DNA from: Takakia lepidozioides
Lineage: Eukaryota; Plantae; Bryophyta
NCBI GenBank assembly: GCA_030704615.1
Contig: CM060733.1
Coordinates: 50,220,001 to 50,284,000, forward strand
Length of the DNA stretch: 64,000 bases
Direction of reading: 5' to 3'
Of this stretch, positions 42,742 through 64,000 are shown piece after piece; positions within the stretch are counted from its first letter, which is position 1, and every line of letters begins with the position of its first letter. The translations under genes were made by a program, and so were the position numbers. Below the pieces are notes generated by a model. The model was given only the letters and a program-made list of their open reading frames with translations, did no database searches and had not been told where the DNA came from.

Positions 42742-45700
42742 ATGGTAGAATGGTGGAGAAAGGGAAAGGAAATGCATGATTTTCTCAGGAAGCGCGAGTT
42801 AAGCAACGACTGTGGGTAAGCTCATAGATCAGTCCGATCTGATGGAGGGGAAGCGAGACTAGTGCTTGACGAATTGCTTCGAAATATTCCTAATTCGGCA
42901 CGATATGTGCTAGATTTGACATTTTGCATGCCGATATTACTGGAGAGAGTAAGCAACAGCCTTACATTTCTTGCAGGTCCGAGAAAAAAATTTGCGAGGA
43001 CTATTCTGCTTCCCGGATTCCATCACTGCTTCAAGAGAGAGAGTTGCCAGGCACAGATGCATATGACAAGGTGTTCGCAGCGGCCTGGCTGGACCACGAA
43101 AAGTTTGTCGTTGGGACTAAGGATAACAAACTGGTACTTTGGAATGCTGCAAATAATAGGAGGATTGATATTTCGTTGCCGCGTCGAGCACAAGCACAAC
43201 CACAGCAGAGTGAGACCTGCGGCATACACTCCATGTACTCTGTCTCACCTTATCCTATTGTGTTCTGTGGTGTTTTCAGGCTTCCCTCCGTTTATCTGCC
43301 AATGAAAATAGTTGAGCTCGCAGCTTCAACTTCTTCATGTCTGCTAAATGGCACTTTGCCAGGAGGCCTTCCGTAGAGTTTGAGCAACCTTGCCTCCTCA
43401 TCTGACAAGAGGTCACGCGATTTTTCCCTGTAGCCATCTTGCGTTCTTAAAGGCATGTTGGAAAGCAGCTTGGCTGTTCCTGCATATCTTAGTTAACCAA
43501 TGCACTGTATTTGCTCGTAGCAGTCTTGATAGATGGCCATTATGACTTCACAGCATCATCTGATGCAATCATGTGTGCTCCATTGTGAGGGTTCGGTATT
43601 TAGATTGGTTGGAGTTCAGGGAGCTAATGGTTTTTTACTGAAGTGGTCACCATAAAACTGTCTGAGCTGCACCAAAGAAGCCATCTTAAACTACTGTTTT
43701 GTGTTGTATTGGCTCTCCTGTTAGAAAGTGTAGTAAACTTTTCCAAGAATCTCCTTGCCACTGGAGCAGACAACCCAGACGATGTTGCAGTGTTCGAACT
43801 CCCATCCTTCAATCCAGTTTGCCTTTTGTCGGTAAGATCCAAGATACCACAATGACTCTAGAACGATATGACGAACATCTAGCCAATGTTTATGGTTATA
43901 TGAGTATGACTAATGTGGGTTCTGGAGTGGCCTGCTTTTAATCTCTCTATTTTAGGGTTTTCCACCAGCAATGAGGAATGTACCACTTTCAACATACATC
44001 TCATTTACACAGCTCATTGGCATTCATGGAAAATGATATTAGAGTGTCCTTGATCTCCTCAAGATTGTGTTGCAATTTTCTTGCAGATGCAGCTTCCAAC
44101 TCCCACCTTTGAATGGGACACAGCTTGAGAAGCTTTGATAGCCTGTTTGAGGAATTGGTCTGGGACTCTCTAGTATTGTATTTTTGACCTGACAACAGCT
44201 TTTTCTTGGAAAATACAGAAGCACAGTGATTGGATGTTTGCAGCAGCATGGCTGACAGATGTATTGCTTGTAACAGGTTTGGCACCGGACTTTCCCATTT
44301 GGAATTTTGAAGTCAAGTCTTTGCCATAGTTAGTTTAGCACTTGGTGGTATTGTGTTAATATGCTGGGATTGCTTGGCTGACAGATGTATTGCTTGTAAC
44401 AGGTTTGGCACCGAACTTTCCCCATTTGGAATATTAAAGTGAAGTCTGCCATAGTTAGTTTAGCTCTTGGTGGCATTGTGTTAATCTGCTGGGATTGCTT
44501 ACGTTACTTTGAACTCTTGGCAGGCTCTCGTGATACCACAGTGAAGCTATGGTCTGTAGATGTCAACAGTCCATTCACTAACCAGTGCCCAGTCATTGAT
44601 CGATCAGTTCACGCAGACAAAGTGAGAGATCTCAAGTATTGCCCAATTTCTGAGGTATAATATCTCAATTGAGCTGCACGTTCTTTCGATATCCTTGTTC
44701 TAGCCGCTTCCTCTTTTTCTAGAAACTCCTCTCTTGTAGGGTGCATTATGTGTCCAACCCAATATGTGGAGCTTCTCACCTTCAGCACAATTCATGAATT
44801 CTACTGTGTGCAGCGGCTTGCAACCCTGGGACAAGATGCCTTGTGCAATATCTGGGATCCCCAACTCATGGAGGTGGTGAGTGCCCCTTTTGGCTTGTGG
44901 TTTATAGGCAGTCTGGCAGTGTTACCTTTTCAATAGAAGAGGGCACTTTCCAGTAACCTGTGTTTTGTGACTCTTGACCCACAAGTAAGCTTGTACCAAG
45001 TTCTGATAGGAACCTTAGCCAATTCATGTCTAATCCTTTGCTGGGATTGTGGATTATTACAGGTCTCGGGTGTGTCACTTCACCACAAAAGAGAGCTGGT
45101 CTGTCTTGCAATGGAGCATCCTCTTATTGCAATTGGATCTCAGAAGTTCATTTCCTTGGTAGACCTACGCTGTGGACATATCATTCAAGATGTTGAATCA
45201 GCAGATGAAGGGTGGGGTATGCAGCTTCTTCCTCCCTATCTTTTTTCTCTTCTTCAACAAGTGATGCATTCTGTTGACCATTTAAGGGGTGGACTTGCTT
45301 GATTCCGTTTTTTGATATCAGGTGTGCGATCATTGAGTTTCAAAGGCAATAATGTCCTTACATGCGGCGGTGGCAAAGGGAGGTTGTCATTTTTTGACCT
45401 GCGGGCTGAAAAGTATATCTCACTTTGTGAGTACCTTCTCACCTGTCTCACCTCTGCAACAGGAATTTGCCTCCTTTCACTAGTCTCTGGGAAAAATCAG
45501 GAGCATTTGCGTAGCATTGAGGTTGTATTGCATGTAACTGCATTGATTTTGAGGTTCTCTTGTGCAGACCCTGAAAAGGGTGGGTGCACCCATTCTTGTG
45601 GCAGTGCGTTGGAGCTCTCTTATTATAATACAGGCAAAGGCGCTTTGGTGATTCTCTTTTCCAAATGTCACTTGTTTAAAGTCCCTTGTAGTCATTGGGT

Positions 45701-46105
45701 ATCACTCAAGTGAAAATCAGTCAAAAGCGTATATTGGAGCAGCACTCACTATTGAGATGGGTCCTAAAATTGAGTGAGAGAGAAAAATGTTCAAGAAAGA
45801 AAAAGAAAGATTTGTACCAAAGGGCCCAAGGGACTTAAGTGGAACAACGCATAACCACGGAACCCAATGAACAGTCGAACTTGATTTGGCCTCCTGTAGC
45901 ATGTGGACCTGTTCTACAAAAAATGAAAGATTGGTTTCCAACTTTGGTGCAGGAGTCCAATGATTTGTACCTCAATCACTTCCAACGGGACCAGATTCAG
46001 CATGCGGTATATGCTCATGCATATGATGTGAGTGGCACCAAGCTCCTTGCAGCAGGAGGCCCGCTTCCATATGGTTTAAAAGGTTGCTATGTTGCGCTAT
46101 GGTAG
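42742..46105 (+). CDS. DCAF12: DDB1- and CUL4-associated factor 12-like WD40 protein
   Basis: Exons 42742(or 42772)-42815, 42977-43234, 43729-43831, 44219-44276, 44524-44654, 44814-44876, 45063-45216, 45322-45426, 45568-45647, 45953-46105. Motifs DKVFAAAWL..VVGTKDNKL, CGIHSI..NFSKNLLATGADNP, HSDWMFAAAW..TGSRD, KVRDL, ELVCLA, GVRSLSF, TGKG and C-terminal AVYAHAYDVSGTKLLAAGGPLPYGLKGCYVALW match animal DCAF12 as recalled. Confidence 0.9.
44249..44499 (+). repeat. 126-bp tandem duplication spanning an exon 3' end and splice donor
   Basis: TGGCTGACAGATGTATTGCTTGTAACAG|GTTTGGCACCG...GGGATTGCT occurs at 44249 and again at 44375. Confidence 0.9.
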
Positions 46106-47678: not shown

Positions 47679-48279
47679 TGTTGTGACCACTGTTGGGCGG
47701 ATCTACCCATTTTTTTCATATAGGCCCGTTCCAGATATTGAAAACTTTTGGTTTTACATGTCGTGCACCTAAGCATTGTGCCACAACATACATCGCTGTC
47801 CAACCACACTTCCTAGCATATAGTCCTAGAAAGCCACGCCACAATGATACGGGAATGGTGAAAAGAGGAGAAACCACTCTATCACGTTATATAAGTCAAG
47901 CCAATGGCACCTTTGCTAAAGGACTCCACCATACAAACCTCACTCACTCTCCATCTCAAGAACTAGAGCTATGGCGGCGAGAGAGGCCTCGGGAGGCTCG
48001 ACTAGAAGAAGACGAGTCTGCCTACGTCTCACGTGGAGATAACCTCCCCACGTCCTAAGTGAGGTTCGCCACCTCACTTGGCACATGGAACCAAATGAAG
48101 TCCCAATGCCAACAAAATACAAATATAAATGTATAATGTCCTAATTAGTTAGAAATAACTATTTCTAACCAATCACAAATAAAACCATGACAGCTATCGT
48201 GCACCTAAGCACCGTGCCACAACATACATGATTGTCCAACCACACTTCCTAGCATATAGTCCTAGAAAGCCACGCCACA
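47679..48279 (-). mobile_element. Putative 3' LTR (~600 bp) of a Ty3/Gypsy-type element, preceded by a polypurine tract
   Basis: On the minus strand: PPT AGGGGGGCGA (48290-48281), then TGTGGCG..., ending ...CACAACA at 47679. Internal 84-bp direct repeat at 47761-47844 and 48197-48280. The distal end is less certain. Confidence 0.65.
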
Positions 48280-48549
48280 ATCGCCCCCCTAGCTGGTGAT
48301 TAGGTCCCTCTAACACCGGATAGCTTGCAAGTATCCACCCCAATAAGATCATCGCTTGGTCTTCAATCGCACAAGTCCCAACACTTGAAGTCGATAGATC
48401 AAGAGGCCGGGTGCAAACGTAGCCCCATCGTTAGTCGCCTTCATACAATCCATGATCTTCAGTTGAGTATCCATGGCATTGAAGCCCCACTAGCTAGACC
48501 GTGGGTCACTTGTCCGCCTCCCCATTGTCATGCCCACTACCTCTGTCCA

Positions 48550-49025
48550 AGGCATCGTAGACACAATCATTCTCCGATAGAAACCTCCTCAAGTGGCGGT
48601 GTCAAGCATCCCATGTGCCACCCCCTTGAGCATTTGTCACACACCAACATGGTTGCGGCGCCACCAGCATGCCCACATAGCATGCAACGCAACCTTGCAG
48701 GTACCACTGCAAGGTTAGGATCTATCATCCCATCCACATGTGGAAGGTGACATGGCGCACAATTGCGCACATGGTCCTTCCATACCATGTCATCTCGACC
48801 CTCCAGAATCAACACTCCTGAAGGCAACACCTCCCTGACCCTTAGAATCACACGTCTTGCGGTGACATCCAAGGTCGTAGGTGCTGTCTGCTGCAGATTC
48901 ACATAGTCCCCAGGATGGAAACGCCGAACACTTGGCCGATATCCCCTTTCACATATAGTGGCGTACCTCAATGTATCTCAGTGTTGGGCAATAACAAGGT
49001 TCTCAAAAGCCATAGGCATGACTTC
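48550..49025 (-). pseudogene. Ty3/Gypsy integrase C-terminus fused to a PHD finger
   Basis: MPMAFENLVIAQH*DTLRYA..RRFHPGDYV.L (post-integrase region), then a Cys4-His-Cys3 PHD: CMLC..MLVCDKCSRGWHMGCLTPPLEEVSIGE*LCLRC. Lies upstream of the PPT and LTR. Confidence 0.85.
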
Positions 49026-49029
49026 CCGA

Positions 49030-50500
49030 GAAGTAGTGCGGTGATCTATCAAGGCTTGCTCGCACAAAGCCTGAAACTCCCCCAAGAACTCTCTCCCTTG
49101 GTCCGTGAGTACTCCTTCAGAAGTTGGGCCTTTGGGCCTCAGAAATTCACGAAATGCGCCACTGCCTCAAGGCCTTCCTTCACGTCCCAAAGCTATTCTT
49201 CCCTGTTGTGCGTCCTGATGGACACGAGGGACAATTTCTTCCGCTTACTCAACTACCAAAGGGCACTCCAATTGACCCGAACTCAGGCCTATCTGCTACT
49301 CCATGTCACATCTTGATAAGATTCGATAGCGATACTGACATGCCAAAAGAGGAAGCCCTTTATCGCGCCAAGAAGAGACTCGAAGAAATGCAAAATCCCC
49401 CTGGGAACTGTCTTGTACAATCTAATCACGGCAATCACAAAACATGGAAACAAGATGTGGTATGGGATCCTCAAAATCGAACTGCTACACCCTGCGACTG
49501 ATGGCATCGCGCTCTTGAAAGGCGACATGGCGTTCGTCATGGAGATGGCCTCCGGGACCCCGGTGCAAGGAAAAGTAAAGAAAACATACGACCTCCTCGC
49601 CACTACCGACTACCTCTCCCTGTACATGACAAGCGAGTCTCCAATGGTGCAATAAGCCTCCATCCCTTGTCATTGATCGATTGGTCAAGTTCGACCCGCA
49701 CATCCACAGTCTGAACGGACCTGCTCCACCTGCCAAGGAGATTTTGGATCGCTTGCGCGTAGCTAATATCAATGAGGCGCTCGCCGACACCGTGAACTCT
49801 ATCAACATCAACGCAAATCCAAGCTCGGAACACGCCCAGGACCTGCTTATGCTTGAATCGACAAAAAATTAGCTCCACATGCCATTTCAATCAAAACCGA
49901 CATATGGGGGGACTTAGCAGCTCTGGACAATAGGGTCGCCACAACCATGGTGGCTCAGAAGGAGGAGCAGCACGCCTACCTAGTCTCTTTAAATGACTCC
50001 ATTACCGAGAACCTTGGCGCTAACCTCGCCAACTTCGACAATCACGCCAATGTGGTTCTTGCTAAGCTTCCCCCTCCCAACAGCTCGGCCACTCATCCCT
50101 TAGTGCTGGGAGATGCAAGCATGATACCGGAAGCAACGACGGGTGGATACAGCCCACTTGCCCTGCTGGAATTCCATCACGCTGATCCCCTCTGGGAATC
50201 ATGAGCTCTGCAACAAAACCATCCGCCGCGGTCACGCTGACCCTCCTACCACCGCAGCAGCCTGGTTTTGACACCAGGGACCCCACCGCAACATGATTAC
50301 CTGCAGCACACACTCCAAATGAGAATGTGTAGGCGACCCCTGCCAATGCTTCCACCAGCCTCAAACAAACGGGCATCCCCGGGGCGATTATTGTTGGCTT
50401 TGAACTACTGCAGCAACACTTCAAATGGTTTCCGCCTTCCTGTTCTGCTCCACTCGGCACACATAGCCAGTCTAACTGCAGGCTCCCCGTGACCAAGCTA
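49030..50500 (+). pseudogene. Frameshifted ORF remnant of a probable transposable element (family uncertain)
   Basis: Overlapping ORFs 49124-49501, 49413-49655, 49681-49872 and 49947-50204 read as one broken protein. No introns are seen, and it truncates the Gypsy integrase fragment. Confidence 0.45.
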
Positions 50501-52896
50501 TATTCTAATAGTGCTTAAAAACAAAACCATCATATCTAGCTTAGCACTAGAAAACTAGATAGATCATCTCTCTCGAGTGATATGAAAACTAAACTCACAC
50601 TGTTGACACAAGAACATGAAATACAACACCATCACTCGTTAAACTAAGAATCGAGCCAGGGGCACCCCAAGCTATGGGGACTCCACCCCACAACATCCTA
50701 TTCTCCCTTCATAAGCACACTCAAATTCTAAGCAGTGAAGGAGCTCGGTCGTGCAGGCTCAACTCGAGAGAGATGAGCCGCACGACTGACGAGCTCGTGA
50801 AGATAAGATGGTTCAGGTGTCAAGCTAAACTTGACACCTGACTTAACACTTGAACTAATTCCAAGTGTTAAATACAAATAACTAGATTTATTCTAGTTTG
50901 TTTCACATTGTGTTTATTTAACTTGACATTTCCTTACGCATCTGAAAAAACCGCGATTATAGCAACAGGCGCGGATAGAAGCAAGCAGTGAAACAGAACT
51001 CCTGCAACCACATCATGATTTAAGGCTCTTGCAAGAAGCCTTGTTACGAACAGAGTGAGATAGCGCTTCAACTTGCTCCCCAAATCTTACTACTCCTCAA
51101 TCTCCTCACTTAGCAGCCTTGGTAGCTCAAAACCTTCAAATCGCGAATATGTTATTGCAAACGCTGCCTCTCCTGCACTTCCTTTGCTTTCTGCATACCT
51201 CCTCTTTACAACCACTATTTCGATCACCCTAAAATCCTTCCTATAGTCTATACCTCTCTCTCACACACATATCTCTCTAGCTCTCGGTTACCTCTTGGTG
51301 TTTAGCTTGTTTGCTAGGGTCACGGGGAAATTTCCCCTCAGTAAGCCTCACGGCCTTGGTGGTGGTTATTTTTTCCACCTTATGACTTTTCTATTAATTT
51401 GATTAAAAGGGCCTCTGTCCCCTTTCATTAAAAAATTTATTTTAATAATAATAATAATAATAATAAACTGTTACATGCAAGTAACAAAATCTAAACAAAG
51501 TGCAATCTGAAAAATTGCCCATCATAGCTTGATATACCATATCATGAAGAACAAATGCATGGTTACATGCGAGCCCTGCCCTGACATAGTTATGAATTGG
51601 TTGTGAAATGATTAACATAATCTAGGAGTTTAAATGCGAGGTAAATTGGTATGTGGTCAGTCTTGTATGCTTCTTTTGTTCCGGATAAAGATTGTTGTAT
51701 AGGTGCATTAATCCACAAAATTAGTTGAGATAATTATAGCATAAGTGCATGCTGAACTTGAATTATCTCCAGTTGTTATTCTGGTACTACGACTTGAGTC
51801 GCTAATTTAAGACCTGTATCTAAGTAGAATTAGCTGAGATAACTATAGCATAACTGGATGCTTAGTTATTTGCAGTTGCTATTCTGCCACTATAACAAGT
51901 CACTCCTAATTATTAGCTGGGAATACATCTCATTTAACCAATCGTATAGGAAAAATAAGTTTCTTATTACTTAAGCAAATTTATTGTGTTATATAGAAAA
52001 CAATTGTGGAAAACTAAAACAATGTCTATGATTTGTATTGAAACTGTGGATTCTATATATCTACATTATTACTGTATTAAAATTATGATATAGACAAACG
52101 ACAACAGAAATTGATAAATAAATTTAATATGTAATCATTTATGAGTTTTTCCTTTTTCACTTCAGCAAATACCAAGTGACCTTTGCTGATTGCTTATGGC
52201 TTATTGCTGATTGTGTCAAGAAGCAGCTTTCGGCCTATCAAAGTCGGAGTCCGCCTCATGACCATGTATGCCATTGGGCTCATCACTCTCACCATCACTA
52301 TAGACATCAGAAGGCTACTGCATCCCTATGTTCTTTAGCAATCAAATGTAATAATTTGTAATGCAATCTTCACTTTAAAATAACAACTACATGTAGCTGA
52401 CGCAAACTCTTTTTTGTCACAGATTGTGCACATTTTTGTGAGCGATTAGCACGTGGGTAACCTTTAAGAAGAAGGAACCAAACAATTGGGTGATGGACTT
52501 CCCTGCATGGATAGAGACAACAATAGATCGAGGATATGCACACTTTCCTCACCACCCCCGCCCACTACTTGAGCTTACAACTGTCCAAAGATATACCATC
52601 GTCTTTTGGGCGTTCCTTTTTGGGGACAGATACACAAACACAGACAGAGCAGAATGGGCAGAGAGAGTTTGTATGATGTGTACCTTCCAAGAAAACATAA
52701 AATGGAGGAAGAATTGTCTGCAGTGTCGAGAAACATTTCACAGTTAAGTATGAGCTGTTAATAAGACCAAAAGGCGAACCAAAGTGTCACTAGGTCAAGA
52801 TAGTAAGCAAGGCAAATATCAGGCAACTTGAGACCCTTCTTGTAGTGAAAGATGTCTTTGTCACTCTCTCAAACAAAGTGCTACATTATACAGAAG

Positions 52897-54950
52897 TCCG
52901 TGGGGGACAGGGTGGTGACCAAGGCATGGCCAACCGGCTTCAGCAACTAGAGCAGAGGCTCGCAGCCATGACCACAGCTCAGGTGGTACCGGCTCCAAGG
53001 TCGGATGGTCCATCTCCTGATTCTGAGGGAGGAGACATGGGAGGCATGGGTTTCATGTGCGGGGCAGCACTATCACTAGTGAGTGGTGTCACTATCACTA
53101 CCACTACCACTATGAGTGGGGCACTACTACCACTAGTGAGGGGTGCCACTACCACTACCACTGTGGATGGGGCACCACTACCACTATGTACGGGGCAGGA
53201 CTACCACTGGTGCAAGTGGAGTCAGCTGCGGCAGTGATTCGAGGAGCAGCACGAGTTCCTGAGCCACGGGGTGCGAAGGTGGAGTTGCATCCACAGCGTG
53301 GGGAGGCAAACCGTCAGGCCAGGCCTCAGTCATTTACATTGGCGGAGACATGTCGACGCCATCCATGACACCTAGTTCTCGCCCGATTGCTACCGAGGCG
53401 GAGGTTACTATGCCATTGGGGAGAGCTACATGGGCAGCACCACTACCTAGTGTTTCCAAGGCTACGGAAACTAGTGTGCTGCTGGGGGCGGTCACATCTG
53501 TGTGTCAAGCTCCATTGTTCTTGGCTACCATGATTGCGACTCTGGGGGTAAGACCAGCTGAGGTGTTCAGGCTGGCAGCTACACTTTGTGAGAGTGGGGA
53601 GGTTACTTCATCTTCTGCGGAGATAGTGGGAGGCGTAGTGATGGAGGGATCCTTAGATGTGAGGGTCAAGACTGCCACGGCGGCGCCATGGCAAGCTGCA
53701 GCTGCCAGGTTGATGGAGCTGCCAGCTAGGCCAGCCATGGTGACACCTGGAGTTGTCATGTTAGACAACCAGGATGACATTTTCTGTTTGAGTGGACCGG
53801 CAGGCAAGAGGCACCGGCCACTACGAGTCTTGTTGGACTCGGGAGCTTAGCCATTGATGCTGGGTAGAACTGCTATTGCAGACTTGGGCCTCACGGAGGC
53901 GGATATGGAGCCGTGCTCTTTCCAGATACAGACATCACTGGGAGGATCAGAGCAGGCTCGGGGCATGACACGACATGAGTTGGCTATCAGACTACAGCCG
54001 GATCATCCTACAGATGGCTCAGTGATGAGAGCCAAGGCCATTATGACAGACGCGGTCTCGTACAATATCCTTATTGGTGGGGCAGTGTTGTACCTCATGG
54101 GCTTCACCCTGGATTTTTGGGAGGAGTCAGCTTCCTATGGGCCTGGATGGTAGTCAGAGGAACGGCGTGTGAGTTGGCCTAGAGAGTTGCTAGAGGGCAA
54201 TGCTCATTCAGAGGATGTGTCATCTCCGGGAGAGTAGGATGACATGTATGGTATGGTGGAGATGCCTGCCATGGTTGCTCACACTCCAAATTATGGGGCT
54301 TGAGTAAGGATTTGCAGCGGGTTGCTGATCGGCGTGTGCAACAAGCCTGGGTAGAGGCTTTTGTACCGTCAGGAGAGGATGATAGTACGGGGCACCAGGA
54401 CCACCTCAGTTGTCACCATTGGACACCACACTGATTGTGTGGCAGTGTCAGGATTAAGGCATTTGCCTTCTGGACTTGTTTGGCGGGATCAACACCGGAT
54501 TGGCTACTGTTCTACAGGCATGTGTACAAGTTCGGCGTTACCTGTATGTGGAGAGGGATGAGACCGCATGACGTGTCTCCCTACGCCATGTTGCTTAGTT
54601 GGTGCAGCAGTACCGTAAGTTGTTGCCGGTGTCTGCAGTTCGTGAATATCATCAGCAGGCCTTGCCAGTAGACATTTCATTGCTGGGGGTGCAGGATTTG
54701 GAGCGGGTTGGCTCCATTGATTTGGTAATGGCAGGTTGGCCCTGCCAAGGGCATTCATCAGTCGGGCATGGCAATGGATTGCGAGACTCGAGGTCGGGTC
54801 TGTTTTGGGAGATGGTGCGGGTTTTGCGCCACTTATAGCTTCATCAAGCTGTATCTCCAGCATATATCTTGGAGAATGAGCCACTGATGGGCGATTCTCG
54901 GGCCAGGGTGATGGCCAGTGTGCATCAAGTCTGGTCGTGGCTTGGGTCAG
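52897..54950 (+). mobile_element. Degenerate Ty3/Gypsy-type polyprotein fragment: low-complexity region, aspartic protease, C5 DNA methyltransferase
   Basis: Protease RVLLDSGA*PLMLG (D at 53836) and YNILIGGAVL. Downstream DNMT motifs I-VI lie in one frame. Truncated at ~54950 by a LINE. Confidence 0.85.
54461..54946 (+). pseudogene. C5 cytosine DNA methyltransferase domain (motifs I-VI), retrotransposon-borne, with in-frame stops
   Basis: Motif I ICLLDLFGGI, II YLYVERD, III DI, IV IDLVMAGWPCQG (Cys at 54743-54745), V GLRDSRSGLF, VI YILEN (54863-54877). Stops at 54569, 54596 and 54836. Confidence 0.9.
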
Positions 54951-57915
54951 AGCCCGGTAAGACTCTATTGGCTTCAAGAGGTGGTGGCAAGTACATAACC
55001 ATGCTAAAAAACATAAGCAGACATTGATGAATCCATAAAAAATGTTACAATGTTTGAGCGACAGCAATACAAAGGCAGCAGGGCTAGGGGAAAATGTCAA
55101 ATCTTTCTGAAATCATCAGTACAGCCGACTGCCAGTGTTGGTATGAGAGTCCAAGCTGATCCAGGTATCAGAACCTCAGCCGTGCTCTTGATTTAGTGTC
55201 CCTAGCTCTTTTATGCCTCCAATTGAATTCAGCCTCATCTCCCTCACCAGGAGACTTCCCATTGAGTGGGGATGGCGTCTTTCTAGGTAAAGCGCATGTC
55301 GGGAAGGCTGGAGCCAAGCAGGTCGCCTTTGTAGCTTGCGTCCTTGTTGTTCTGAAGTTCTGGGAATAGCTGCACACACAGAGTCCCACGCTTTCCTCCC
55401 CTCAGTTAACAAATCATGATATGTATGAAACAAGATCGATCTGCCTCTGGGGTGTTTGCCCTCATAAACCCAGGCACACCTTGTTTTCCACAAATTCCAT
55501 AAGGTATGAGCTCTCAGAGAAGCCCAAACCGGGCAGCTAACCTGAGATTGAGCAATCTGAACATTAAGGAGCAGCATTGAAGGAGGGGGTGGATTGGAGA
55601 AAGAGGCCCAGTGAGAATAGAATCCAACAATTATTCTCTATATCCTACTTGAGATATTGCAAACAGTGTTCAATAAACTCTGGTTCAAGCAAGCAGAGGG
55701 GGCAGGTAGGCTGGTCCTCATGGGTAACAAGCCTGATGGGGAGTATTCTGTGTGCCAGTTTCCATAGGAAGTCGGATACTTTTGTAGAACGGTCCTTCCT
55801 CCAAATGTCTCTCTACACTTTGTCCCAGCAGCCTTGAGGTAAAATGTGGTTGCCCCATTTGGCTGTCCATTTTCTTTGAAAAGAGCGAGGTGGGTTGATG
55901 AGAGAGTAACCCAACTTCACAGAATAACCAAAGAAAGGGGTTTTTTTGCTATCCATCCACCGCCACTCTCCTGGATCGAATTGCAAATCAGCCAAAGGGC
56001 AAGAGAGGAACCAGGATATGATTCGTGAAAGGCCCATTGCACTTCCAATCCTGGGGGAGGCAAGGGTTTGGCATTGCCTTTACTGTCCAACACTCTTATG
56101 TGGCAGAGGTTGTCCTTGTTGTGGTCTGTAATGCCTTGAAAAGCCAGACAGTCTTCGGCATCTGGTATGAAGCCTATCCCTGTTGCTGTGTTTCCATGCG
56201 TGGAGAGAACGAGGATTACCGTCCATTGATTGTCCGTTGGTGCAGCCATCCAAGCGGGGACTGACCAGTCTGTTTGTGGTTCATCAAGGATGGGCATCAT
56301 GTATTGTGGGATATTTGATAGGACAATGTTCCAAGCTCTAGACCTTCTTCCACCCAGGGATGTAGAGACTTGCTCCTCCGTCAAGAACTGGTCTTGCTCT
56401 CTAATAGAGGCGATGTGGGTGAAGCCTTTCCCTTCCAAAAAAGCCCAGGCCGGGGCATGTTTCAGGAGAGGGGTAGAGTCCATGTTGAAGTTGATGAACA
56501 GCGGCTGGCGGAGGCATTCTTGTATAGTGGCAGGCATTCTCTGTGTGAGGTTGCCCCTCAGGGCATGCCATGCTTTCCAAATTGTTTGCCATGGTCTGGA
56601 AGCCAGCTTAATTCCTGCATTTCTACCTTGGACAATCCACCTGAGAGAATGAGCCTAGAGGGGAGAAGATGCGGGGATAGATCCCATCAAATAAGGCTGA
56701 ATGAGTTTGCTCCAGGGAGCACTCCTGTATTTTATTGCCCTCGGTATCGACTTTGCCAGTAGTGCTTTGATCTGAGCTGCAATGTCCAAAATTCCCAAGC
56801 CTCCCCGCTTTTTCTCTTGGCACAGCTGGTCCCATGAGACTAGTGCCCGTCTCAATGGCGTAGAGGGGGTGGCCCCCCAGATGAAATTTCTAATGAGGGT
56901 TCTTATCGCCTTATGAAGGGCAGCCTCCAGATCCCATACTGCAACCAAAAACCATAGCGAGCCTTCCATAACTTGATTGGCTACTAGTGCTCTGCCCACT
57001 ATAGAAAGCATTGCCGAGCTCCAAAAAGCCAGGCTTCTCTTAAGTCTGGAAAACACCTCTTTCATTCGGTTGTGCTGCGTAAGATGTATGCCCATCTGGT
57101 GACCTAGCAAGGTGTGTGACTCCCCCGGTTGCAGCCATCTTAAACCAAGGTCTTGGCCCCATGATTGACAATGTGTTGTGGGAGCCCCATCTTGCCGGAG
57201 GGAGAGGATTCCCATGGACTTTCCCCAATTCACTTTCAGGCCTGATCCAATGCATAAAGTATGGAGGGCATGTAGCGCTCTGTCTATGTTGTTTTTCCTT
57301 GTATTGTCTAGCAGGAGCACCGTGTCGTCTGCATACATAGATAATTTCAGCATTTCGGGCCTGTAGGTGGGCAATTGAAGACCAATGATGTCGTGTGTAG
57401 AGTCCAGTAGATGACCCAGTGAATCCGCCGCAATCAAGAAAAGGAACGGGGTGAGTACTGGATAACCTTGTCGTACTGATCTGGATATTGGGAAGGATCT
57501 GGAGATTACCCCATTTTAAACCATTACCATGCTGGAGGCCGAATGGAGTAGTATCCGAACCCATGCCAGGAAAGGACCCCCTAGCCCTGTTTTTTCCAAA
57601 ACCTTCATGAGAAAAGGCCAGTCAATGGAGTTGAAAGCCTTCTCAAAATCCAGGATAAGGAACACCAATGGCTGGTTATTCACCTCAGCCTGTGGAGGCT
57701 CTCATGGGCTAGAAGGATGTTATCAAGAATCATGCGATCCTTGAGGAAGCCTGTTTGATTTTTCCTTATGATGTTCGGCAACAACGGTTGCAGCTTGAGT
57801 GCCAAGGCCTTTGCAATGATTTTATAGGTAGAGTTTAGCAACGTGATTGGCCGATAGTTTGCCATATTGTCTCTTTCCCCCTTTTTGAAATCAATGTTAC
57901 CAGTCCCTCCGAGAT
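54950..57915 (-). mobile_element. 5'-truncated L1/Tx1-type LINE ORF2 remnant (reverse transcriptase, zf-RVT)
   Basis: NYRPITLLNSTYKIIAKAL, QTGFLKDRMILDNI, LDFEKAF, RQGYP, SMYADDTVL, GLKVNWGKS, GGLGILDI, C-terminal RAHTLWNLWKTRC. Several frameshifts. Confidence 0.93.
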
Positions 57916-58605
57916 CTGGGAGTCACAATGACTTCAAAAAATGTATACGGAACAATGTTGCACAAACAATTGGTTGTGCACGACTCTTGATCTCTAGATG
58001 ATAAATTTAGTTGAAATCTCCATATAAATTAATGATGGTTTGTTTCAGTTATGAATGCAAGTCTTCTAAAGAGCTTTGGTTTCTTTACGATATAGTAAAT
58101 AATCCATGCGATTAATATGTTGTCATATATATTTCTTTTATAACAAAAAAATATTTATTGTGCCTCAAATCTACCATCATCGAAGTAATAGTTGTAGCAA
58201 CTTATGTGGAGCTTATGTGTTCAAGCAACATTTCATACATATTTATTTGTTGACATAGTATGAAAATTAAAGCTAGAATATCATAGTATAATTTATAATA
58301 CTATCAATTACTCATAAATATCTATATACCTCTTTGTATTGATCGCAATTTGAAGTCCATAAGAAGAATATAACAAATCAAACCCTAGCCAAATAATTAG
58401 ATATAATGTAGAGCTAGTTCTCTCACATTATAATAATGAAGTGCTCTACAATTCAAATTACTCAATATAAGTAACACACAATATTCCATGAAACATTGTT
58501 CATCCCATGTGATAAACATGAAAACATATATGTACATTAATATTTTTGTGTGCAATTCAAAATTCAAAGTCATGTATAATTGTGTACAATCTCAAAGTGA
58601 CAATA

Positions 58606-61600
58606 CTATGTAATTTCTATATTGTAAATTTTTGGCAATGGATTGAAAACAAAATACCGGGCTTTATCCCAAAATATTAGGGGGACAACTATTGAGGAAA
58701 ATCCAATAGCTACACCTATAGCAAATCCATGTATAGACACAATGTCGGATAATTGAGGTTCTTGGTGTTGTAAGGTTCTATATATCTCTATCGAAGCATT
58801 TAAATTTTGTGTGCATGAATTGTTTAGAGGTGAGCCACAAAGACCTAAATTCCCTGGCTTATAGGTACTTACAGTAAAAGAATTGAATTGATTGCCTCTC
58901 GGAATTAGCCCGGATAGATTGTTCATAGATAGTTCTAATGTACCTAAGTTTTCTAGTTTTGTAAGAGTTGTTGGAATTCCACCTGAAAGTTGATTGTTTG
59001 AAAGATCTAATGTTTCCAATTCTAATAGATTTTCAAAATTTGGCGGTATCTCACCTTGTAAAGCATTGTGAGACAAAATCAAGTACTTCAAAGCCACCAA
59101 CGTACCGATATGCAAAGGGATACTTCCAGTGAGACTGTTTCTTGATAAATCAATATATGCCAATGACTTCAAAATGTATGTATAGTCCAAGCCAATCCCT
59201 CTAGGATATAAAGTGATTTCATAATCAAGTGTCGAACCCGCGGCTAGTGAGTCATTTGAATTTTCTGTCACTTTGAAACCTTGTAATCGAGTAAGGTTGG
59301 TAGGAATATCGCCTGAAAAGTTGTTGTTTGACAAGTCAAGTACTTGAAGTTGTACCATGTTGCCAATCCAAGATGGAATAGAACCCTCAAATTTGTTTCC
59401 AGCTAAACGGAGTATGCGCAAGTTTTGCAAACTCGAATCATTGACTAGCTCAATAGGTAAGCTTCCATTTAGGTTATTCATACCGAAATCCCCCAGTTTA
59501 AGACTAGTAGAAGTGGCGAAAGATGATGGAATACCTCCAATGAGATTATTACTATAAACTGAAAATAATTGTAGATCATCGAGTTGATTAAAATCAAGTT
59601 GTAATGGTCCAGATAGCGTGTTGTTGCTCAACTCCAATATTTGCAAAAACGTACAATTGACCAAAGTCGAAGGAATGCTTCCACTCAACTTGTTTGAGCT
59701 TAAATACAGATATCGTAGTTGCGTCAAACCTCCCAATTGTGTAGGTACATCACCTTTGAACATTATTCAACACCAATTTAATAATAATAATAATAATAAC
59801 CATCACAGTAAGCAATGTGGATTAGCTATACCACTAAGGGTGTTAAGTGAATATTTTTACGAGGTTGGAATCATATTTCTTGTAAGTCGTTCATTTCTCA
59901 TTCATAGCCTTAATTTTCTCTATCATAATGACATATTTGTTCACAATCTACAAAAATTTACCAAATGTATTTGCGATTTTGAACTTTAAATTAATTTATC
60001 ATTTCTGCGCTTTTGAGTTTTCAAATAACACCATACCTTGTAATTGATTGTTGTCAAGATGAAAATATCTCATGGATGTGCAATTGGTCAAAGACGTAGG
60101 GATTTTGCCAATAAGTCTATTTTGGCTCAAATCCAGATACACCAATTGATTCATCCTTCCCATTTCAGTAGGTATGTGACCTAAACATCAAACCACACAT
60201 AATTAGATAATTTCTCATAATCAATCTCTTGTACTATAATCATGTATCCAAGTTCATTTAAAAACAACCAAACAAAATTTGTTTCACATGTCAAATGGAC
60301 AATTTAATAACATCAAAATAATTCTTGTATGTATTGACATTCTTGGTGCTGAAAAACATCATATTCAAATGTTCAACATAACCAATTCAATAAGCCTTGT
60401 GTTCTCTACGCATAATTAACATCTTAATTTTACAAGTGTTGATGGGGTTTATAGAGATATTTTCATATTGTCTTCACACAATGAAATAAGTCTAGATTTT
60501 AAAATTGTTACATTTCTAATTAACGTGTTAATTGTGATAAATGTTATTCATGCATCAAATTTCCCCACCTGACAAATTGTTGTTGTTGAGCCACAAACCC
60601 TGCAAAGAAGTGCAATTTGTCAACGAAGAAGGGATAATGTTGGTAAAATTATTTCCACTCACGTCCAAATATACCAATTTATTCAGCACTCCCAACTCCA
60701 TGGGTATATGACCTGAACATCAACCATTGCATGTTAGTACCTATAGTGTATATTACATGTTCATTACACTATACATTCAAAAATTTAGGTAACAGATTCT
60801 GAATATTCATTGACATTTCATAATATAAAAAGTTGAATGCAATATTGAATACATTATCATCAACCTTTCACATTTAGCTCTAAAAAGACTAGTAGATCAA
60901 TCATAATCCATTGATACTAATATATCTATTATTTGGGTGTTCTCATATACAATTAGATATACTTGAGACAAAAGTTTTGATGCTCTCTATTTCGTTATAA
61001 GTACCATATTAAAATTAACCCGATATTTTATTTTATCTTTTGTGAAAGGAAACCTGGGAGCGACAGCCCACAATTCAGGCCCTTGAGGAGGGGGAAAACA
61101 TAATTATACTAGTGATAAATATGGAGTTTTTACCTGTCAATTGCATGCCGTTAAGCCACAATTCTGTGAGTAGGGTGCAGTTCAACAGAAAAAGAGGGAA
61201 TTGACCCGTGAATTGATTACCACCTAGATTTAAGGAAGAGAGTTGATTCGACATTCCCAATTCCATAGGTATATCACCTGCCAAAAAAAGCATCATGGTA
61301 GAACTTGAAAGAGTGTTTTTCGAGAAAAAGGAGAAAAAGAAGAGTTTTTTTTTTTTTTTTTTTTTTTTTTGGCATAAGACTTTATAACTGAGGTCGGATT
61401 TATGATAAAATAATTATTATTTTTTAATTAAAATTACTACCATAGGTGCCTCTTGCTGTCCGCCATTAATTAAATAAAATAAAAATACAGAGCTGGAGAA
61501 AAAAAAAATTCCTCCTCTCAAAGTGCCAAATATCCATATATTTGAACCCAACACTTGTTTGAAAAGTGTTCAACCTCTTCTGCGAAAAAACAAAACAAAA

Positions 61601-63958
61601 CAAAAACAAAAATGATATGGTGTTTGTTTTTTAGATAATATGAATAAAAAATAATATCAATCTATTAAATATATATTTTGTCTTCAAAGTCAATTAATAT
61701 TTTACCTGTCAGTTGATTGTCGCTGACCCAAAAGTATACAAGGTTTCTCGATCCGATAGGTATATGACCTATACCACCATTAACCATTGTATGTCAGTAC
61801 TATTGCACAATGTTTCTGTTAATTATAGTTACATTAGTTAAAAATAAAATCATATATATATATATATGATTTTTTATTTTTTTTGAAATACAATGTTATG
61901 TACTCACCTGTAAAACTAATTAAGCCCAAGTTTAGCCTAGTAAATGATAGCTAAATCCAAATAAAGAGCCCAAGTTAAAATAATGATCTAAGTGATAGGA
62001 CGTTAAGGGTTGAGGTAGCAATTTTTTTCCTCTTCAAAGATGTTATTTAAAATACACTTAAGTTTCAGTAAGAATTGAAGATATGAGGAGTAGATGGTCA
62101 AGAGCTAACTAAAGAACTACATAGTTAAATGTAGCTAAAGACAATCGAATGATATTCTCAGATCTAAGGATGGATTGACAGTAGTCCTACAACATGATTT
62201 TGTTACATTGTTACACCAGAGCAAAATTTGCAACCATGCAAGAACCTACCTGTGAGGTTGTTGTTGTTAAGCCATACACCCAAAAGAGACGTGCAATTCG
62301 TGAAAGAAGGCGGTATATTGCCCGTGAGATTGTTTCGGCTCAAGTCCATATAGGTTAAATTTTGCAGTTGACCAATTTCTTTGGGTATATACCCTGATAG
62401 TTGGTTGTTGTGCAGCCACAGACCCACAAGGGAAGTACAACTCGCCAATGAAGATGGGATGTTGTCTATGAGATTGTTAAAACTCATATTCAAATATTTC
62501 AATTTCTTCATTGTTCCCAATACATCAGGTATACCACCTGATCAGCAACAACCATCACATATTAGAATTGCGCTCCATATATATTCATCATAATGCACAT
62601 TCAAAAATTGAGTTCAATACAGATTGCAACATGACTACACCGGGAGAAGGTTACATGTGAGGGGGAGGAGATAATCTCACCCATAAGTTTGTTTGAGGAA
62701 AGATAAATGGTACTTAGATTTTGCAGTTGTCCAATTTCTTTGGGTATAGACCCTGATAGTTGGTTGTTGTTTAGCCACACACCCACAAGAGACGTGCAAT
62801 TCGTGAAAGAAGGCGGTATATTGCCCGTGAGATTGTTTCGACTCAAGTCTATATAGGATAAATTTTGCAGCTGACCAATTTCTTTGGGTATATACCCTGA
62901 TAGTTGGTTGTTGTTCAGCCACAGACCCACAAGGGAAGTACAACTCGCCAATGAAGATGGGATGTTGTCTATGAGATTGTTAAAACTCATATCCAAATAT
63001 TTCAATTTCTTCATTGTTCCCAATACATCAGGTATACCACCTGATCAGCAGCAACCATCACATATTAGAATTGCGCTCCATATTCATCAATGCACATTCA
63101 AAAATTGAGTTCAATACAGATTGTAACATGACGACACCGGGAGAAGGTTATATGTAAGGGGGAGGAGATAGTCTCACCCGTAAGTTTGTTTGAAGAAAGA
63201 TAAATGGTACTTAGATTTTGCAGCTGTCCAATTTCTTTGGGTATAGACCCTGATAGTTGGTTGTTGTTTAGCCACACACCCACAAGGGAACTACAATTCG
63301 CCAACGAAGATGGGATGTTGTCTGTGAGATTGTTCCTACTCAAATCCAAAAGCTCCAATGTCTTCATTGTTCCCAATGCAGTTGGTATACCACCTGAACA
63401 ACAACCATCACATATTGTTAGAATTGCACATGTAATTTTAATGTACATTAAAAGATTGAGTAATATAGATTTCAACCCAAGTGTTTATGCCTGAGAGAGA
63501 ATCCATGACCTAAATGCACATGGGAGCCTACCTGTGAATTGGTTGTTGTTTAGCCACACACCCACAAGGGAACTACAATTCGCCAACGAAGATGGGATGT
63601 TGTATGTGAGATTGTTCCTACTCAAATCCAAAAGCTCCAATGTCTTCATTGTTCCCAATGCAGTAGGTATACCACCTGATCAACAACAGCCATCACATAT
63701 TGTTAGAATTGCACATGTAATTTTAATGTACATTAAAAGATTGAGTCATATAGATTTCAACCCAAGTGTTTATGCCTTAGAGAGAATCCATGACCTAAAT
63801 GCACGTGAGCCCACCTGTGAATTGGTTGCTGTTAAGCCTCAATACCACAAGGGATGTGCAATTCGCTAAAGAAGAGGGTATAGTGCCCGTGAGAGTGTTC
63901 TCACTCAGATCGATATGCGAGAGCTTGGTCAACTTTCCCAAATTTGGCGGTATGCCAC
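58606..63958 (-). CDS. LRR receptor-like protein (Cf-9/RLP type: island domain + 4 LRRs, TM, short tail); 5' part extends beyond the window
   Basis: Open phase-1 exons 63958-63815, 63675-63532, 63393-63178, 63040-62681, 62537-62250, 61768-61706, 61277-61134, 60712-60569, 60180-60037 and terminal exon 59753-58606. Plant LxxLxLxxNxLxGxIP repeats, island (YEITLYPRGIGLDY), NQFNSF..GNLGLCGSPL, TM GFAIGVAIGF, no kinase domain. Confidence 0.93.
62250..63830 (-). repeat. Recent tandem duplications of LRR exon + intron units
   Basis: Intron 63394-63531 is nearly identical to 63676-63814, and intron 62538-62680 to 63041-63177. Exon segments are shared almost base for base. Confidence 0.92.
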
Positions 63959-64000
63959 CTACGAATCCAACAGTAATTGCTCGTTAGTTCGAACAATTCA

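Follow-up and report, generated by a model that had tools for sequence, protein, structure and literature searches.

The window (the whole 64,000-nucleotide stretch of Takakia lepidozioides DNA analysed here) contains what is left of the 3′ part of a decayed retrotransposon of the Ty3/Gypsy type, and it is well supported that relatives of this element carry a DNA methyltransferase domain (DNMT) together with an integrase ending in a PHD finger (INT-PHD) in one and the same element. These relatives insert as A…B or A…B-A-B, A and B being the terminal repeats described below, with a 4-bp target duplication.

The integrase-PHD fragment and its family

On the minus strand of the window, the integrase C-terminal region (49022-48690) reads in frame into a Cys4-His-Cys3 PHD finger (48686-48552), which scored 30.7 bits against a cut-off of 24 in the Pfam scan (E 3.1e-07). 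The fusion named in the original prediction is therefore real, as is the lack of a chromodomain, Pfam giving no Chromo family match in the window or in relatives. A chance PHD match was rejected: the score lies above the cut-off, the solved neighbours are KDM5/DPF3-like, and residues are conserved across the aligned rows. The fragment had been placed at 47679..49025, which was right for its integrase and PHD content, but not for its bounds: it begins at 49112 with a remnant of the catalytic core, and the right end of the element lies at 47759. Similarly, a polypurine tract (PPT) and an LTR had been announced after the PHD; a G-rich PPT does precede the terminal repeats, but these form a split B-A-B arrangement instead of a single ordinary LTR. 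The features of the window are:

49023..49112, minus strand: integrase catalytic core remnant, 30 residues (Pfam rve E 0.0043, below cut-off; tblastn to P0013 residues 741-770, 90%)
48690..49022, minus strand: integrase C-terminal region, a long helix followed by a predicted small beta-barrel (barrel modelled for the corresponding part of L067)
48552..48686, minus strand: PHD finger, Cys4-His-Cys3 (Pfam PHD 30.7 bits; nearest solved sequences KDM5B/KDM5A PHD1 and DPF3)
48282..48314, minus strand: conserved cis element abutting B1, with the G-rich polypurine tract at its end (~88-95% identity in most related loci)
48195..48281, minus strand: repeat B1, 87 nt (93% identical to B2; 5 of 6 differences are transitions)
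48188..48199, minus strand: B1/A2 junction, a near-palindrome of right-end motif, 2-nt spacer and left-end motif (GACA-NN-TGTC in relatives)
47846..48192, minus strand: repeat A2, 347 nt (other copies have their left end where it starts)
48002..48013, minus strand: predicted self-primer, a 12-nt segment of A complementary to the sequence after A in other copies
47759..47845, minus strand: repeat B2, 87 nt, right end of the element (…GACA; contig ends at 47759)
52908..54949, plus strand: second fragment of the same family, with gag tail, aspartic protease (~53719-54150) and, at 54458-54949, the N-terminal half of a DNMT3-like domain; stops and frameshifts interrupt it

This INT-PHD copy is dead because premature stops at 48978-48980 (integrase C-terminal region) and 48567-48569 (within the PHD, whose frame ends at 48537-48539) break the frame, and about 98 codons are deleted between the core remnant and the C-terminal part (tblastn places these at P0013 residues 741-770 and then 869). 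At 49023, 23 contigs of run X1 diverge from the window into a common other sequence.

Of the 36 proteins returned by the INT-PHD protein search, those with an organism name come from Marchantia, Calypogeia, Sphagnum and Coleochaete. The metagenome scan gave 313 confirmed matches, and the best 80 loci were retained, mostly one family from a few assemblies, several being the same insertion. Among these best 80 of 313, the DNMT was found upstream on the same strand in 30 of the 35 loci with at least 5.5 kb of upstream DNA (27 of those 30 also with RT); the remaining five lack gag and protease matches too, and a DNMT was also seen in 5 of the 45 loci with shorter upstream DNA. The domain order in relatives is gag-PR-DNMT-RT-RH-INT-PHD. 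In P0075 (2811 aa), as in its cluster mate P0029, gag, protease, DNMT, RT, RNase H, integrase and PHD share a single frame; in L067, one stop separates an unbroken Gag-PR-DNMT frame of 1369 aa from an equally unbroken RT-RH-INT-PHD frame of 1047 aa. The DNMT thus lies within the Pol frame in P0075/P0029, and an in-frame stop parts it from RT in 23 of 31 loci. Both L067 and P0075 show the PR-RT-RH-INT order of Ty3/Gypsy, and their rve and H2C2 matches denote a DDE-type integrase. In the relatives, DNMT and INT-PHD therefore occur together in one element, as had been proposed; the outcome named as refuting this, that the two never share an element, is contradicted. Against it counts that no contig of the window's own organism links the DNMT piece of the window to its INT-PHD piece. 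A host gene, as opposed to a transposon, was rejected by the repeated gag-PR-DNMT-RT-RH-INT-PHD context and the high abundance in the window's organism.

In trees built from 13 of the loci and chosen proteins, the window INT-PHD falls in a 99/98 clade and the window DNMT in an 85/89 clade (below the starred level), the same DNMT-bearing loci being present in both; L064 and L067 fall outside the window group for both domains. The pN/pS values between L067 and L064 were 0.23 (DNMT), 0.09 (RT), 0.05 (INT) and 0.12 (PHD), and those between the window and three close loci were 0.28-0.36, with synonymous sites near saturation; DNMT and PHD are both under purifying selection. None of the 13 + 6 relatives scanned gave a Chromo match and most frames end within a few residues of the PHD, which sets the family apart from the chromoviruses. 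The two long L067 frames (frames of at least 200 aa scanned) gave no tyrosine recombinase match, having a DDE integrase there instead. The viral contig search found no relative, and no protein named K. nitens was among the matches (best 7991 candidates scored).

Several other features of the relatives were observed. The more distant P0147, P0148, P0149 and P0073 have a second DNMT position, between RNase H and integrase (RT-RH-DNMT-INT-PHD), and P0147 and P0073 read WECQ at motif IV and ENT at motif VI. Pieces of the element account for many Marchantia gene models in which a DNA-methylase or PHD domain occurs, and likewise for Calypogeia and Sphagnum models (P0041-P0048, P0009 and P0004 among them all); P0019, a Coleochaete transcript protein, is RT-RH-INT-PHD. 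P0032 and P0033 extend ~330-380 residues beyond the PHD, P0032 with a weak Tudor-like match (PF21743, E 0.007, below cut-off). Gaps of ~850 bp recur in the coding region or ends of L017, L033, L036, L039, L058, L069, L070, L079 and L080, which suggests one small element inserting into the family.

The protease-DNMT part of the second fragment lies on the plus strand at 53213-54949 (Pfam DNA_methylase E 3.4e-10, with tblastn in agreement); the left edge of the fragment, 52908, was placed from loose contig ends, and its DNMT ends before motif VIII. The original prediction took the two fragments for the 3′ and 5′ parts of one family. Membership of one family is borne out by the matching clades, but no A repeat or primer site was found upstream of the DNMT piece, as halves of one insertion would demand. 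The two are likely separate insertions of a high-copy family, because they face away from each other and the DNMT piece has neither A repeat nor primer site; the window search found no second A repeat or primer site anywhere in the window, including near and upstream of that piece. That both derive from a single insertion, broken and partly inverted, would account for their shared family, their similar decay and a distance of only ~3.8 kb; we nevertheless consider it very improbable, given their divergent orientation, the missing RT-RH and most of gag and integrase, the other repeats between them, and an abundance in the window's organism at which neighbouring copies are expected. Both fragments draw very high summed contig depth there, taken only as a sign of abundance and not as copy number.

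Around the fragments, another abundant repeat occupies 50371-51153, between the two (summed depth up to 4.6e5 in X1), and a decayed LINE-type reverse transcriptase (RVT_1; 55920-57922, minus strand) adjoins the DNMT fragment. A DCAF12-like WD40 gene (42894-46105, plus strand; Pfam E 4e-08) has its last long frame ending ~1.6 kb from the right end of the element. Further away are a leucine-rich-repeat gene with repeated exon-sized units of ~144-157 nt (58609-64000, minus strand) and a frame with a kinesin-type microtubule-binding match (PF16796; 11473-12192, minus strand).

Terminal repeats, permuted ends and predicted self-priming

After the window PPT, the order is B1 (48281-48195), 2 nt, A2 (48192-47846) and B2 (47845-47759). 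The G-rich tract at 48275-48314 is ~90% conserved in relatives and, unlike this cis element and PPT, the flanking non-coding DNA of related loci is not conserved. An ordinary 3′ LTR was rejected, since both the window end and the relatives carry split A/B repeats. In the window's organism, contigs stop at 47759 with unrelated flanks in 51 cases in X1 (agreement 0.39) and 48 in X3 (agreement 0.37); 11 X3 contigs stop at 48192, the start of A, also with unrelated flanks (agreement 0.41), and three contigs show A-start, 2 nt, B-end. Contig joints from 48962 to 47758 and from 49112 to 47759 link the right end of the element to integrase sequence, as expected for nested self-insertions of the family.

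Full-length relatives have TGTC at their left end, at A1, and GACA at their right end, at B. The PPT anchor was present in 60 of the 80 loci and the right end was readable in 55, equal to 40 independent 3′ flanks: 28 PPT-B, 10 PPT-B-A-B and 2 PPT-B-A-inverted A. Among the 15 visible left ends, B never preceded A1, and A followed B1 in six; a complete LTR at each end (B-A…B-A) was seen in none of the 40 flanks and 15 left ends. An exact 4-bp target site duplication (TSD) was found in 8 of 14 loci with both ends; dropping L076, L078 and L080 (cut or damaged ends) left 8 of 11 exact and two more with one mismatch, against 1 of 110 cross pairs. The B/A junction, GACA-NN-TGTC, has its 2-nt spacer in 13 of the 14 loci tested, and the same near-palindrome occurs at the B/A junction of the divergent L064 and L067 and in contigs of the window's organism. 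The A/B2 junction is precise in 8 of 10 events, and of the two imprecise ones, one has an insertion. In the best model (below), A…B-A-B is the form that the window copy had; the A…B form could alternatively arise from B1×B2 recombination or assembly collapse.

The 11 nt that follow A1 match A nt 169-179 in reverse complement, ~31 nt past a TATA-like box (exact in three of the four loci checked). In the window's family the post-A sequence differs, and 12 nt of it are complementary to A nt 180-191, at 48002-48013 of the window (chance ~2e-5; one contig each, X6 and X7). Judged by sequence, the complementarity expected of self-priming is therefore present in two families of differing sequence. 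The two inverted events present the A end, the primer site and an inverted A in succession, and an X3 joint between 47854 and 48001, on opposite strands, repeats this order, as expected if a long self-primer had been copied. In repeat A of L056 (~nt 157-179), the predicted self-primer sits on the right of a 10-bp hairpin, opposite a left arm identical to the primer site, a hairpin not clearly kept in the window's family; in L056 it could block priming by read-through transcripts.

The explanation that we favour, with somewhat better than even confidence, is that the integrase cuts the internal B/A palindrome of circular cDNA, that the PHD steers integration and that the DNMT marks new copies. 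RNA would start within A1, and its first 11-12 nt, pairing with the site right after A1, would prime reverse transcription. The product would be an ordinary linear cDNA with an LTR of B-NN-A, because the PPT directly precedes B and the primer site directly follows A. The insertions seen, however, all begin and finish at the B/A junction within this LTR. The integrase would use GACA-NN-TGTC inside this LTR, cutting after CA on each strand and leaving 2-nt overhangs as at processed retroviral ends; cleavage of a palindromic LTR-LTR junction has been described for the foamy virus integrase (PMC1180852). A one-LTR circle, or cutting of both LTRs, would give A…B, a probable dead end; an end-joined two-LTR circle would give A…B-A-B, probably the sole form able to copy again because it alone retains the A at the 3′ end that a further round requires.

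Two observations speak against circle cutting, and both favour its main rival, a replication of the PAT/Ngaro DIRS type, in which RNA would run through B2, A/B2 would be inherited, an internal B1-A2 splint would rebuild both ends of a linear cDNA and the integrase would insert it in the usual way. Random cuts of a two-LTR circle predict A-B-A…B as often as A…B-A-B, and A-B-A…B is absent from all 15 visible left ends; cutting must therefore be biased, if the circle model holds, because none of the 15 left ends is A-B-A while six have A after B1. In addition, the A/B2 junction, precise in those 8 of 10 events, is neater than host end-joining suggests. The repeat layout itself has been described as a DIRS layout, in the part of the source available (PMC5890265). 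Set against the splint, however, are the PPT abutting B and the self-primer site abutting A, which define an ordinary B-A LTR; the two inverted events, in which the cDNA stops with A followed by the primer site; the 28 of 40 ends that are plain A…B; and the two imprecise A/B2 junctions, one with an insertion. We therefore regard the splint as rather unlikely and retain circle cutting as the working explanation.

Predicted roles of the PHD finger and the DNMT

Between DNMT and RT, the stop in those 23 of 31 loci is an in-frame TAG or TAA followed by CAR. The context in L067 and L064 matches UAG-CAR-YYA, the leaky-stop signal of plant viruses, and the stop after the DNMT is probably leaky. Such a stop would make Gag-PR-DNMT abundant and RT-RH-INT-PHD scarce, the DNMT being packaged in bulk and the PHD staying on the integrase. 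The PHD is predicted to steer the integrase towards H3 tails that lack methylation, and methylation of each new copy is the predicted role of the DNMT.

The PHD of the family is nearest to KDM5B and KDM5A PHD1, DPF3, ATXR5 and BHC80, both by sequence and by the fold of the L067 model (pLDDT of the L067 C-terminus 75 with a 30-row alignment, 33 as a single sequence). In the same model, the barrel between integrase core and PHD names no function, Tudor, KOW and SH3-like folds being tied at middling Z (at most 8.2). The residue two before the zinc-binding His is Gly in 18, Ala in one and Trp in none of 19 PHD rows; 1 of 20 proteins falls outside the pattern. A Trp at this position belongs to the aromatic cage of H3K4me3-reading PHD fingers (BPTF/TAF3/ING type). 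A K4me3 reader was accordingly rejected, the cage position being Gly/Ala in 19 of 19 rows. The Asp equivalent to KDM5A D312 is present in 18 of 19 rows and the Trp of the H3A1 pocket in all 18 unbroken rows; the equivalents of D292, E305 and D315, the acidic K4/R8 pocket, are missing in most. These residues of KDM5A PHD1 have been assigned roles, in the available part of the source, as H3A1 pocket Trp, H3R2-binding Asp and acidic K4/R8 pocket (10.1101/715474). The PHD of the family likely binds the free H3 N-terminus, its K4 preference, and even H3 binding, being unsure without the acidic residues.

The DNMT domain is unpermuted and Dnmt3-like, its best solved match being DNMT3A (E 3.6e-11), and the catalytic motifs FGG, PCQ, ENV and RxR are kept in P0039 and P0046. 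It is predicted to mark cDNA or new copies. The DNMT of KnitGypsy-Dnmt3 gave no methylation in yeast, a result its authors call inconclusive (PMC5890265).

The original prediction cast the PHD as possible chromatin-reader partner of the DNMT, and this part was not supported: the PHD is fused to the integrase and, in the window's clade, the DNMT closes a separate first frame. The two more likely act apart, the PHD in targeting and the DNMT in marking cDNA, because the PHD ends the integrase while the DNMT ends frame 1. The alternative is that both serve as reader and writer in one protein or complex, the PHD aiming the DNMT at chromatin around the insertion site in the way that the ADD domain aims animal DNMT3 at chromatin. 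Purifying selection on both domains would suit it, as would P0075, which carries both in one frame, and the persistence of the pair despite two DNMT positions, including that between RH and INT (P0147-P0149, P0073). We still judge it improbable: in the window's clade the ends of frames 1 and 2 that bear DNMT and PHD are ~1000 residues apart in an element with a protease, and Gypsy-7a_cRei, a PHD-bearing Gypsy, is described without mention of a DNMT in the available text.

More tentatively, and with rather less than even confidence, one can envisage a streptophyte-wide Gypsy lineage with the integrase attachment site shifted to mid-LTR, circular cDNA as obligatory substrate, self-priming, a DNMT3 packaged at Gag levels by readthrough and H3 read by an integrase-fused PHD, whose new copies would be pre-methylated and aimed at silent chromatin.

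Relation to known systems

In the article text covered by the literature search, no paper dealt with DNMT3 and PHD in one element, land-plant copies, permuted ends or the mechanism; PMC12344493 only restates the streptophyte Gypsy-DNMT3 case. The closest system is KnitGypsy-Dnmt3 of Klebsormidium nitens (de Mendoza et al. 2018, PMC5890265), described in the part available as a Gypsy element with a Dnmt3-like domain and DIRS-like repeats, A1 … B A2 B. The window family shares both traits. KnitGypsy-Dnmt3, however, is reported only from an alga, in few copies and with the DNMT within the Pol frame, whereas the present family is found in liverwort- and moss-type sequences, is abundant and has an in-frame stop behind its DNMT; a PHD is mentioned nowhere in the readable text and supplements on KnitGypsy-Dnmt3 (0 matches; Fig. 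4c may show one), and the passages give no TSD, priming or mechanism. The range of Gypsy-Dnmt3 is thus widened from one alga to liverwort- and moss-type genomes, in which it is sometimes abundant, a PHD reader is added, and a testable reason, an LTR with a built-in integrase junction, is offered for DIRS-like repeats that had been noted but left unexplained. Search tools that rely on paired LTRs would overlook such elements, fragments of which make up several Marchantia gene models that carry a DNA-methylase domain.

The joining of a histone reader to a cytosine methyltransferase within a single LTR element, as in the window family, has a precedent in the EpiLTRs, which carry chromodomain, DAM and DNMT (10.64898/2026.05.21.726589). 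According to the portion of that source available, their reader is a chromodomain, their DNMT is sister to DNMT4 and a DAM domain is added, and the authors set them apart from the streptophyte Gypsy-DNMT3. A PHD in a Gypsy element is likewise known: PHDs in retrotransposons have been called widespread (PMC6673714; 10.1101/2021.11.30.470311, both available in part), and in Gypsy-7a_cRei of Chlamydomonas the PHD in Gag-Pol is a proposed insertion guide, with an intergenic bias (PMC9940879). Gypsy-7a_cRei and REM1 resemble the window family in having such a PHD, proposed to guide insertion, but the accessible descriptions mention no DNMT, and they have near-complete LTRs at both ends, unlike the window family. 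Self-priming has been described, in the available text, for the Tf1/Sushi and Tcn1 chromoviruses (PMC6317226), which share with the window family a primer site complementary to their own 5′ repeat and not to a tRNA, but have a chromodomain and ordinary LTRs.

The split direct repeats A1 … B1 A2 B2, here found in 10 of 40 independent ends and in the window copy, are those of PAT/TOC1/Ngaro-type DIRS elements. These elements have a tyrosine recombinase, whereas the window family gave no match to one and has a DDE integrase and 4-bp TSDs. As in foamy virus, whose integrase cuts a palindromic CA-NN-TG junction to give processed ends (PMC1180852, available in part), the proposed route depends on cutting at a junction of ends; in foamy virus, however, the junction is made by joining cDNA ends, while the LTR of the window family carries it internally, with the effect that integration would permute the repeats. 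If this mid-LTR attachment site is true, circular cDNA, in other LTR elements a dead end, would be an obligatory integration substrate, which touches on the long-standing question of whether integration can truly proceed from LTR circles.
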